Shown: positions 1,164 through 2,337 of the stretch, piece after piece
Position numbering within the stretch: position 1 is the first letter of the stretch
Layout: every line of letters begins with the position of its first letter
Origin: Escherichia coli
Lineage (GTDB): Bacteria > Pseudomonadota > Gammaproteobacteria > Enterobacterales > Enterobacteriaceae
Strand: one strand, 5' to 3'
DNA: 2,337 bases
Assembly: GCF_024298765.1 (NCBI RefSeq)
Contig: NZ_CP101220.1
Notes under the pieces: generated by a model
The model's input: only the letters and a program-made list of their open reading frames with translations
The model's database searches: none
What the model was told of the DNA's origin: nothing
Program-made: the position numbers and the translations under genes

Positions 1164-1267
1164 CAGTATTCCGGTATTTGAAATACCGCTGAGCGGTATT
1201 TCAACCTCCGCTCAGCGGTAAAAACTTTCCCGCTGAGCGGTATATCTATTCCCGCTGAGCGGTATTT
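1164..1267. repeat. Iteron array: five direct repeats in exact 22-bp phase; four full copies of CCGCTGAGCGGTAT(T/A) starting at 1186, 1208, 1230, 1252, plus a degenerate leading copy carrying CGGTATTT at 1172
   Basis: Direct reading: CCGCTGAGCGGTATTT 1186-1201; CCGCTCAGCGGTAA 1208-1221; CCGCTGAGCGGTATAT 1230-1245; CCGCTGAGCGGTATTT 1252-1267. Start-to-start spacing is exactly 22 bp three times. The CGGTAT core recurs at 1172, 1194, 1216, 1238, 1260. The left half CCGCT-N-AGCGG is itself a dyad. Confidence 0.75.
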
Positions 1268-1363
1268 AGTTTGCCTCTAGGCCTTGTCACACCTGATTTT
1301 CCTATCTGTCTGTGAATCTATCTTAGATCTCGTGCGTAAGTGCACTATGCCAATACTGGTTCC

Positions 1364-1430
1364 CTTCCGCTTCCTCGCCCACTCGCGAGCCTAGCGGCTC
1401 GGTCGCTGGGGCTGCGGCGAGCGGTGCCAC
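1364..1430 (+). other. ColE1/pMB1-type origin-flanking conserved segment, probably a PriA-dependent primosome assembly site (n'-pas / single-strand initiation signal)
   Basis: Window CTTCCGCTTCCTCGCCCACT...GCTCGGTCG...CTGCGGCGAGCGGT versus remembered pBR322/pUC CTTCCGCTTCCTCGCTCACTGACTCGCTGCGCTCGGTCGTTCGGCTGCGGCGAGCGGTATCAGC. Exact blocks of 15 nt (1364-1378) and 14 nt (1412-1425) are shared. Contains hairpin CGAGCC-tagc-GGCTCG (1386-1401). Assignment of this pBR322 region to the pas is from memory. Confidence 0.55.
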
Positions 1431-1905
1431 CTCTCGCATATCGTTGACGATCCCGATTTGATCTCAGGCGATCGAGTCGCTGGCCACCGGTTAAACGCGC
1501 TCAAAGCCTCCCAGACGCACAAAACGCGGGTTAAATGCCCGTCAGGGCATGGAAGGCGCGAAAAACGCTTACAGAGGTTTTCAGAAGGTTAGGCGCGCCG
1601 ATACCCCTAACCAGGGGCTTTCAGGTCGCTAGGAACCGCGCCAGCCCCCTGCAAGGCCCATTTGCACGGAACAGACAGCCACTCGGTTGGTAGGTGGTCG
1701 TAGACCGTCGGTGTTACAGCGATGGGGGTCTGGGGTTCTCCCCAGACGGTTTCCGGTTGCGCTCAAGGCGCTGCCGGAACCGTGGCGGCTTCGATGGTGA
1801 AGGGTGAGCGCGTTTCCAAGAGGTTTTCCAGGCAAGCTATGACTGAACTGAACAGATTGAACGAGGAGGAAACGCGCTCAGACGCTTTGTAGCGCGCTTT
1901 TCTGT
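1431..1905. other. GC-rich, ORF-free, hairpin-dense segment; candidate ColE1-like RNA-primed origin/regulatory RNA region (RNA II preprimer and antisense RNA I analog), or another structured noncoding RNA
   Basis: Sharp rise in GC relative to flanking AT-rich genes. Only ORF is a 68-aa minus-strand Arg/Pro/Gly-rich one typical of GC-rich noncoding DNA. Hairpins seen: ATGCCC-gtca-GGGCAT (1535-1550), CCCCT-aacc-AGGGG (1604-1617), 8-bp stem 1728-1735/1740-1747 with loop TTCT, CCGG..GCGC-tcaag-GCGC..CCGG (1753-1777). Order of motifs loosely parallels pUC ori (e.g. GATACC followed by a CCAGG/CCTGG-type hairpin). No clean RNA II-like promoter was found. Confidence 0.35.
1868..1902 (+). terminator. 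Intrinsic-terminator-like hairpin with T-rich tail (stem CGCGCT 1873-1878 / AGCGCG 1891-1896, 12-nt loop, then CTTTTCT)
   Basis: Seen directly on the + strand at the 3' edge of the GC-rich block. Could be the terminator of an RNA I-like antisense RNA or of another + strand transcript. Loop is fairly large and the U-tract is interrupted. Confidence 0.35.
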
Positions 1906-2337
1906 GTCAGGCAAGTTTGTTGTGTCTTTTGCCTTTCAGGTTGTTAGCAGCTGGCGGAGCACTGCACGGGGATTAATGCTCCCATTGCTAGGATGAAATA
2001 AAGATTAGGAGCGAAGTTAAGTTATATTTTTAATATATAAACGCGATATCAATAACTCACATAGTTATATTTTATGCATATGCTACCATCTTGCTCTTTT
2101 GCCTCCTGCTCTCTGGACGAATCCCGCATTACCAACAGGCAATGGATTATATAACCAAGAAGATCTAATCTTTATTCCTCTAATAATCCACAAACGACAG
2201 ACAACAAAGACATCAATTAATTCGGTGTTATTTATTAAATAACAAGCAATAATTTTTAAAATCTGTGTAAATAATATTGAATGAAGCATCATTTTTTTGT
2301 ATCAGAAATACCAGGTTACGACGCGGTATTTTATTTT

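Follow-up and report, generated by a model that had tools for sequence, protein, structure and literature searches.

The window analyzed here, a stretch of 2,337 nucleotides, carries at positions 1331 to 1440 a conserved element (ssi) that is homologous to ColE1/pBR322 ssiA and is probably a PriA-dependent primosome assembly site of the phiX174 type; it is located in a plasmid of the RepL family. Its homology, distribution, position, and polarity are observed here, along with a hairpin potential that appears to be conserved, and on its sequence we class the window copy as a natural but diverged representative of the ColE1 ssiA/phiX174-type primosome-assembly-site family. Within the RepL-type cryptic plasmid it is placed and oriented as one would expect of a lagging-strand (single-strand) origin. 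Elements of this kind are well known and, although they go unannotated, very widespread; the present one reveals no new mechanism.

The window is a complete small cryptic plasmid of Escherichia coli. It matches three E. coli records of exactly 2,337 bp at 100% (from chicken, human stool, and a human rectal swab) and a fourth record of 2,347 bp at 99.9%, and its replicon type is Col(MG828) in the PlasmidFinder typing given by PLSDB. The features are collected in Table 1. The G+C content is 59 to 63% at about 1331 to 1943 and 24 to 40% elsewhere in the plasmid. Each of the 22-bp iteron-like repeats holds the palindrome CCGCTSAGCGG, with S alternating. We note that two further copies of TTCCGGTATTTGA (at 1138 and 1169) are present between the four iterons and rep, and that TGTTCCACA at 1110 to 1118 is a relaxed DnaA-box-like sequence.

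Table 1. Features of the 2,337-bp plasmid, in window coordinates
Feature	Position	Strand	Basis
Predicted I-complex-type oriT	about 20-106	minus	Homology to I-complex plasmids and motif read from sequence
NikA/MobA-like ribbon-helix-helix relaxosome accessory protein gene	134-559	plus	NCBIfam NF041264 MobA
RepL-family replication protein gene (rep)	649-1068	minus	tblastn; homologues carrying PF05732
Four 22-bp iteron-like repeats	1186-1273		Repeat families D1 and D2, spacing 22; kept in L019, L020, and L023
Conserved nonrepeated 57 nt, gap between ssi and iterons	1274-1330	minus	Highly conserved versus L019
Conserved ssi element, ColE1 ssiA/n'-pas homologue	1331-1440	minus	Profile match, 16-copy alignment
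GTGCGTAAGTGC motif (GCACTTACGCAC on the minus strand)	1334-1345		Conserved across 16 lineages
Core imperfect hairpin	1364-1425	minus	Blocks exact versus pBR322; consensus structure
GC-rich noncoding block, colinear with ssi	1431-1943		Composition, fold z-scores, relatives

A sequence-only reading of the window had pointed to 1364 to 1430 as similar to a pBR322/pUC sequence, at about three quarters identity and with exact blocks of 15 and 14 nt. The pBR322 sequence used in that reading is correct, with 57 of 58 nt exact in two natural ColE1-like plasmids (L016 and L017) in which Rfam finds RNAI; we take the pBR322 site to span about 2353 to 2410 and to be the L-strand factor Y effector site. 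Gapped global alignment of 1364 to 1425 with it gives 51 identical columns of 62 (82%, with four 1-nt gaps), and the match thus stands at a somewhat higher identity than was estimated. The exact blocks are far above chance, as proposed, and lie at 1364 to 1378 (15 nt), 1397 to 1405 (9 nt), and 1410 to 1425, the last being 16 rather than 14 nt long. Local alignment scores 36, whereas shuffles reach at most 16 with the whole window (300 shuffles) and 21 when only the GC-rich block is shuffled. The ColE1 record NC_001371 aligns with 1365 to 1425 at 78.7% over 61 nt (E 2e-6). Beyond the element there is no similarity to ColE1, and the backbone is otherwise unrelated, as the earlier reading held.

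Comparison among plasmids suggests that the homologous unit is about 95 to 110 nt (1331 to 1440) and exceeds the segment of 1364 to 1430 that was originally delimited. An nhmmer profile of 16 plasmid copies of the element finds a single copy in the window, at 1440 to 1331 on the minus strand (E 3e-25). Leftward, homology extends to about 1331 and takes in the GTGCGTAAGTGC motif, and rightward it reaches about 1440 in Rep-encoding plasmids. The 16 aligned copies include those of ColE1, three ColE1-like plasmids, a 4,072-bp pIGWZ12-type Rep_3/MOBQ4 plasmid and a 5,344-bp relative, pJD8 (pKL1-like, 1,546 bp), IncX1, IncX3, and IncI2 plasmids, and an IncN-like plasmid with two copies. Long blocks are invariant between these unrelated replicons and read, on the complement of the window's plus strand, CCGCTCGCC.CA, GAC..G, and GAGGAAGCGGAA. 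A CTTACGC motif is conserved about 25 nt 3' of the invariant blocks on the minus strand, and its TACGC is invariant or nearly so in all 16 lineages, ColE1 included. By this homology, 1331 to 1440 would fall within the phiX174-type (PriA/n') pas, ColE1 ssiA family. The GTGCGTAAGTGC motif sits about 20 nt outside the hairpin, and the ColE1 version of it is GATGCGTAAGGAG. The heptamer ATACTGG at 1353 to 1359 resembles the ColE1 nic heptamer; it is conserved in no other copy, and we take it as chance.

The element is widely distributed. A 105-nt query (window 1328 to 1432) matches 4,593 PLSDB records, mostly from Escherichia, Klebsiella, Salmonella, and Enterobacter, and the matching plasmids are mobilizable as well as conjugative. 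Replicons carrying it are ColE1-like, pKL1-like, pIGWZ12-type, IncX, IncI2, and IncN-like, and the annotation under the match is 'none' in essentially every record. Among complete E. coli genomes it is present in 1,643 of 5,426 (about 30%), at 2,493 plasmid places versus 172 chromosomal ones, and it is thus a plasmid-specific conserved module. The 172 chromosomal copies, which reach a maximum of 22 places per genome, are presumably integrated plasmids or other elements. Three records of 1.4 to 1.9 kb filed under 'Escherichia phage' (OX638291.1, OR844749.1, and OR844798.1) are 85 to 86% identical to window 1332 to 1790 and look like pKL1-type plasmids deposited as phages; these misfiled records are the sole matches to phages, and we do not count phage relatives of the element.

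RNAalifold and constrained folds give a single long imperfect hairpin (1364 to 1425), with a basal stem CCGCT/AGCGG followed by CC/GG and C/G pairs and then by a distal stem that varies among lineages. In this plasmid the distal stem is GCCC/GGGC plus CGAGCC-GCTA-GGCTCG; elsewhere it is GTCGAT/ATCGAC (pJD8), GATGGATT/AATCCATC (L025), or ACCC/GGGT (the IncN-like copies). The basal stem pairs show no variation at all among the copies. Across 16 sequences, a 19-pair model derived from the window sequence is 82% paired, compared with 29 to 40% when the partners are slid, and both-side changes are seen in 5 of the 19 pairs versus 2.1 expected, a number equalled in 1 of 500 shuffles. Single-sequence fold energies are not significantly above those of shuffles (z of -1.9 for the window minus strand and about 0 for ColE1), and a chimera test of arm covariation is not significant, because an alternative pairing of CGCTCGC with GCGAGCG competes. 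Counts of G-T versus A-C mismatches (5 versus 7) do not distinguish the structured strand, and the strand assignment therefore rests on the classical ColE1 model. The hairpin potential appears to be conserved, with some compensatory change, but the support is only moderate.

The initiator of the plasmid belongs, on the evidence of its homologues, to the RepL family (PF05732). In tblastn searches with Rep, annotated RepL proteins are found in Arsenophonus (62%) and Bacillus (27 to 29%), and Rep homologues at 50 to 98% identity bear both PF05732 and NCBI's RepL name; the plasmid's own Rep has no direct match in Pfam or NCBIfam. The true start of rep is likely at 1062, giving a protein of 137 aa.

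The order of parts is that of pHW126, pIGRK, and pIGMS31, in which the replication module consists of ssi, a conserved region, four iteron-like repeats (20 bp plus 2), and rep (PMC6854812). Here the ssi (1440 to 1331) is followed by 57 nt (1330 to 1274), four repeats with a 22-bp period (1273 to 1186), and rep (1068 to 649). By analogy, and because they are highly conserved versus L019 within an architecture like that in PMC6854812, the 57 nt may correspond to the 'CR' of pHW126-type modules and are a candidate leading-strand origin. Members of the pHW126 family are likewise small AT-rich Enterobacterales plasmids; unlike in that family, the ssi here runs on into a 500-bp GC-rich block. The pHW126-family ssi is ColE1-type-like and dispensable, but plasmids that have lost it rise in copy number and multimerize rapidly (PMC6854812; bioRxiv 10.1101/2022.12.05.519187). 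pHW126 shows rolling-circle behavior in a two-origin deletion assay, and its Rep is tied, weakly and tentatively, to the pSN2/RepL group via PSI-BLAST (PMC2831885).

Two plasmids whose Rep is 85% identical to that of the window (L019 and L020) are colinear with it at about 80% through rep, the iterons, the 57-nt conserved region, and the element, and into the GC block. This codivergence argues that the element is an old resident of the replicon lineage rather than a recent insertion. The profile search does not find it in the RepL relatives L021 to L024, and it is therefore accessory and not essential to the replicon.

Polarity relative to the initiator gene is consistent. Nine plasmids that encode a Rep and represent at least five replicon types agree in this (the window, L002 with a different RepL variant, L019, L020, the Rep_3/MOBQ4 plasmid L015, IncX3, IncX1, L005, and pJD8): the GAAGCGG strand is the rep-sense strand, and the element is 260 to 700 bp upstream of rep, beyond the iterons. 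Viewed in the orientation of the window, the initiator gene is to the left of the element and on the opposite strand, with the iterons between. In four RNAI-bearing ColE1-like plasmids the element is downstream of RNAII/ori in the pBR322 polarity. In the classical ColE1 model, RNAII and the growing leading strand extend from ori toward the site; the displaced lagging-strand template presumably reads ...CCGCTCGCCGCAG...GAGGAAGCGGAAG, which in the window is the minus strand. The polarity proposed from the sequence alone is supported, in that displacement would have to traverse the site from high to low coordinates. The IncN-like plasmid L003 (NZ_CP072981.1) has two ssi copies (3808 to 3865 and 5771 to 5829) that flank repA divergently and point away from it, an arrangement expected for priming both forks.

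The plasmid also carries a predicted origin of transfer. In I-complex plasmids, the intergenic sequence that immediately precedes mobA/nikA and the relaxase gene matches positions 20 to 106 at 76 to 77% identity. On the minus strand of the window, an inverted repeat (58-52/43-37) is followed by 8 nt and then by the nick motif CATCCTG|T. An inverted repeat, 8 nt, and a nick motif form the layout of RP4 and R64, and the predicted nick falls between 29 and 28 of the minus strand, which would make the minus strand the transferred strand. The NikA/MobA-like product of 134 to 559 scores 95.6 bits with NCBIfam NF041264 MobA, against a cutoff of 80, and a relaxase gene is absent from the 2,337-bp plasmid. 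These features suggest an I-complex (R64-like) oriT with NikA, served by a relaxase in trans, and the plasmid would be a 'relaxase-in-trans' plasmid like pCERC7 or pBuzz. We note that MOB-suite calls the plasmid non-mobilizable, despite the oriT and the nikA/mobA-like gene. The minus strand of the ssi is the sense strand of rep as well as the predicted transferred strand of oriT.

The GC-rich block next to the ssi is strongly structured, with fold z-scores down to about -7 at two adjacent hairpins, 1727 to 1746 (GTCTGGGG-TTCT-CCCCAGAC) and 1747 to 1783 (ACGGTTTCCGG..GCGC-TCAAG-GCGC..CCGGAACCGT), and with a 13-bp inverted repeat at 1805-1817/1868-1880. The double hairpin is 97 to 100% identical in pKL1-like 1.5-kb plasmids, and both hairpins are lost in the diverged IncX1 copy. 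No covariation was found in 1727 to 1783, where the copies are nearly identical; this double hairpin is possibly a second single-strand signal. The block is present at 85 to 93% in pKL1-like and RepL plasmids, with colinear pieces in IncX1, IncN-like, and other plasmids, and its right boundary varies, lying at 1789 in the pKL1-like plasmids and with a 125-bp insertion in L002. The 1.5-kb plasmids of the pKL1/pKST21/Col(MG828) group share the whole of 1331 to 1789 at 85 to 87%, and 1690 to 1790 at up to 100%, with the block in the same position relative to rep. They differ in their initiator, an unrelated 158-aa helix-turn-helix protein, and are without a mob/oriT module. The jump in identity to these plasmids, from about 83% to 97 to 100%, indicates recent recombination inside the GC-rich module. 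It is conceivable, if somewhat unlikely, that the roughly 600-bp block from 1331 to 1943 is a portable, Rep-independent cassette of several host-read single-strand signals (the PriA site, the 1727 to 1783 double hairpin, and others), which moves as a unit between RepL, pKL1-type, IncX, and IncN-like replicons and acts as a lagging-strand origin and as an establishment signal on the transferred strand.

On the analogy with ColE1, the sequence-only reading had placed a leading-strand origin within this GC-rich block. Such an RNA-primed origin, with a leftward preprimer, extension by Pol I, and exposure of the site about 100 to 500 nt downstream, would fit the polarity of the element, the suitably oriented stretch of about 510 nt of structured GC-rich noncoding DNA that lies upstream of it, and the Col(MG828) type, which covers both this plasmid and pKL1-like plasmids with a different Rep. 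The proposal is not supported, however, by the features that a ColE1-like origin has. RNAI, which Rfam detects in L008, L014, L016, and L017, is not found in the window at E values up to 1 (a spurious miRNA match over the iterons is the only hit); Smith-Waterman scores of 1431 to 1960 against four ColE1-type ori/RNAII regions are at shuffle level; and no promoter-like site was found. The plasmid moreover encodes a Rep of its own and has four iterons, both at lower coordinates than the site, and the block does not end at the same right-hand position in every plasmid; all of this makes a ColE1-like origin here very unlikely. On a 2.3-kb circle, a unidirectional or rolling-circle round beginning at the iterons and passing through rep would in any case come to the site from the high-coordinate side. 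Still less credible is a protein-coding role for the region, which has in its favor a CDS of NZ_CP026493.1 (L026; positions 1 to 585) that lays a 194-aa 'rep protein' over the homologous block and ssi. This open reading frame is not conserved in pJD8 (63 and 118 aa), L002, or the window (43 to 68 aa), in which the frame is broken differently, and the alignments between copies contain 1-nt indels; we therefore reject coding potential for the GC block, and the CDS looks like a misannotation.

A role mainly in conjugation, in which the element would prime the complementary strand on the incoming transferred strand while vegetative replication is independent of it, gains from the oriT homology and the minus-strand nick layout, according to which the transferred strand carries the GAAGCGG sequence at about 940 nt from the 5' end, and from the pIGWZ12-type plasmids, in which the element adjoins the mob/oriT module. 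The element is also kept, however, in pKL1-like 1.5-kb plasmids and in ColE1-like plasmids without mob genes, and in ColE1 the transferred strand bears the opposite, inactive strand of the element (as read from L008), so that a role in conjugation cannot hold for all carriers; the association with rep, in linkage as in polarity, is more regular, and we regard this explanation as unlikely. The mosaic structure of the block (1690 to 1790 at 97 to 100% versus 1331 to 1430 at about 83%, relative to pKL1-like plasmids) points to frequent recombination and could be taken to mean that the element came along with the GC-rich block, as a remnant of recombination without function or as a contaminant from a cloning vector. 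Invariant blocks and a fixed polarity in thousands of plasmids with unrelated replicons argue against a remnant, and we hold either version to be highly improbable. The suggestion that the match might be vector derived can be set aside, given only 82% identity to pBR322 with four indels, the presence of the plasmid in independent isolates from chicken and human, and the codivergence of the element with rep and the iterons at about 80%.

A primosome assembly site read from the displaced strand remains the reading that we prefer. The pBR322/ColE1 segment just downstream of ori is an n'-pas/ssiA for lagging-strand initiation (PMC3167613, PMC5778457); in ColE1-type replication, unwinding of the DNA during extension by Pol I exposes the n'-pas, and PriA then assembles the lagging-strand primosome (PMC3167613; see PMC5778457 for general PriA and pas background). 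For the window element we infer PriA dependence, the active strand, and the replication mode. If replication starts at the iterons and conserved region and runs through rep, the minus strand, being the rep-sense strand, is expected to be displaced. The active state would be this strand in single-stranded form, reading ...CCGCTCGCCGCAG...GAGGAAGCGGAA..., with an imperfect hairpin of roughly 60 nt that would be recognized by PriA; PriA, with PriB, DnaT, and DnaC, would load DnaB, DnaG would prime, and the complementary strand would be made. Located immediately upstream of the iterons and the start, the site would be exposed last and would act like a single-strand origin. The polarity would serve a rolling circle, as is reported for the pHW126-type relatives, or a unidirectional theta round alike, and this may explain why the theta plasmids pIGWZ12 and IncX share the layout. 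Since transfer, too, is predicted to involve the minus strand, the same site could prime the complementary strand in a recipient, which the GC block and the element would enter at an early stage, in the active orientation and about 940 nt behind the 5' end.

Compared with the ssiA of ColE1, pMB1, and pBR322, the window element has 82% identity to the pBR322 core, shares the invariant blocks CCGCTCGCCGCAG and GAGGAAGCGGAA, and is alike in predicted hairpin outline and in the upstream CTTACGC motif. It differs in belonging to a Rep/iteron (RepL) plasmid rather than lying downstream of an RNAII origin, in its distal stem (GCCC/GGGC plus a 6-bp CGAGCC/GGCTCG hairpin), in the absence of an adjacent DnaA box, and in an extra conserved flank, ATGCGAGAGGTG, which is common to Rep-type plasmids only. 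Like the sso of rolling-circle plasmids and the complementary-strand origin of phiX174, it would be a host-read, orientation-specific signal on a displaced strand, and like an sso it would lie just upstream of the leading-strand origin and be dispensable for replication. The Gram-positive sso types, in contrast, are RNA-polymerase dependent and unrelated in sequence, and no sequence similarity between the element and the phiX174 pas is detectable.

The element accounts for a Col(MG828) typing that groups plasmids with unrelated initiators, and its presence is a caution against open reading frame calls, such as the 'rep protein' CDS, over noncoding DNA. It also serves as a marker of strand and direction for poorly studied small replicons, including RepL, pKL1-like, and pIGWZ12-like plasmids.
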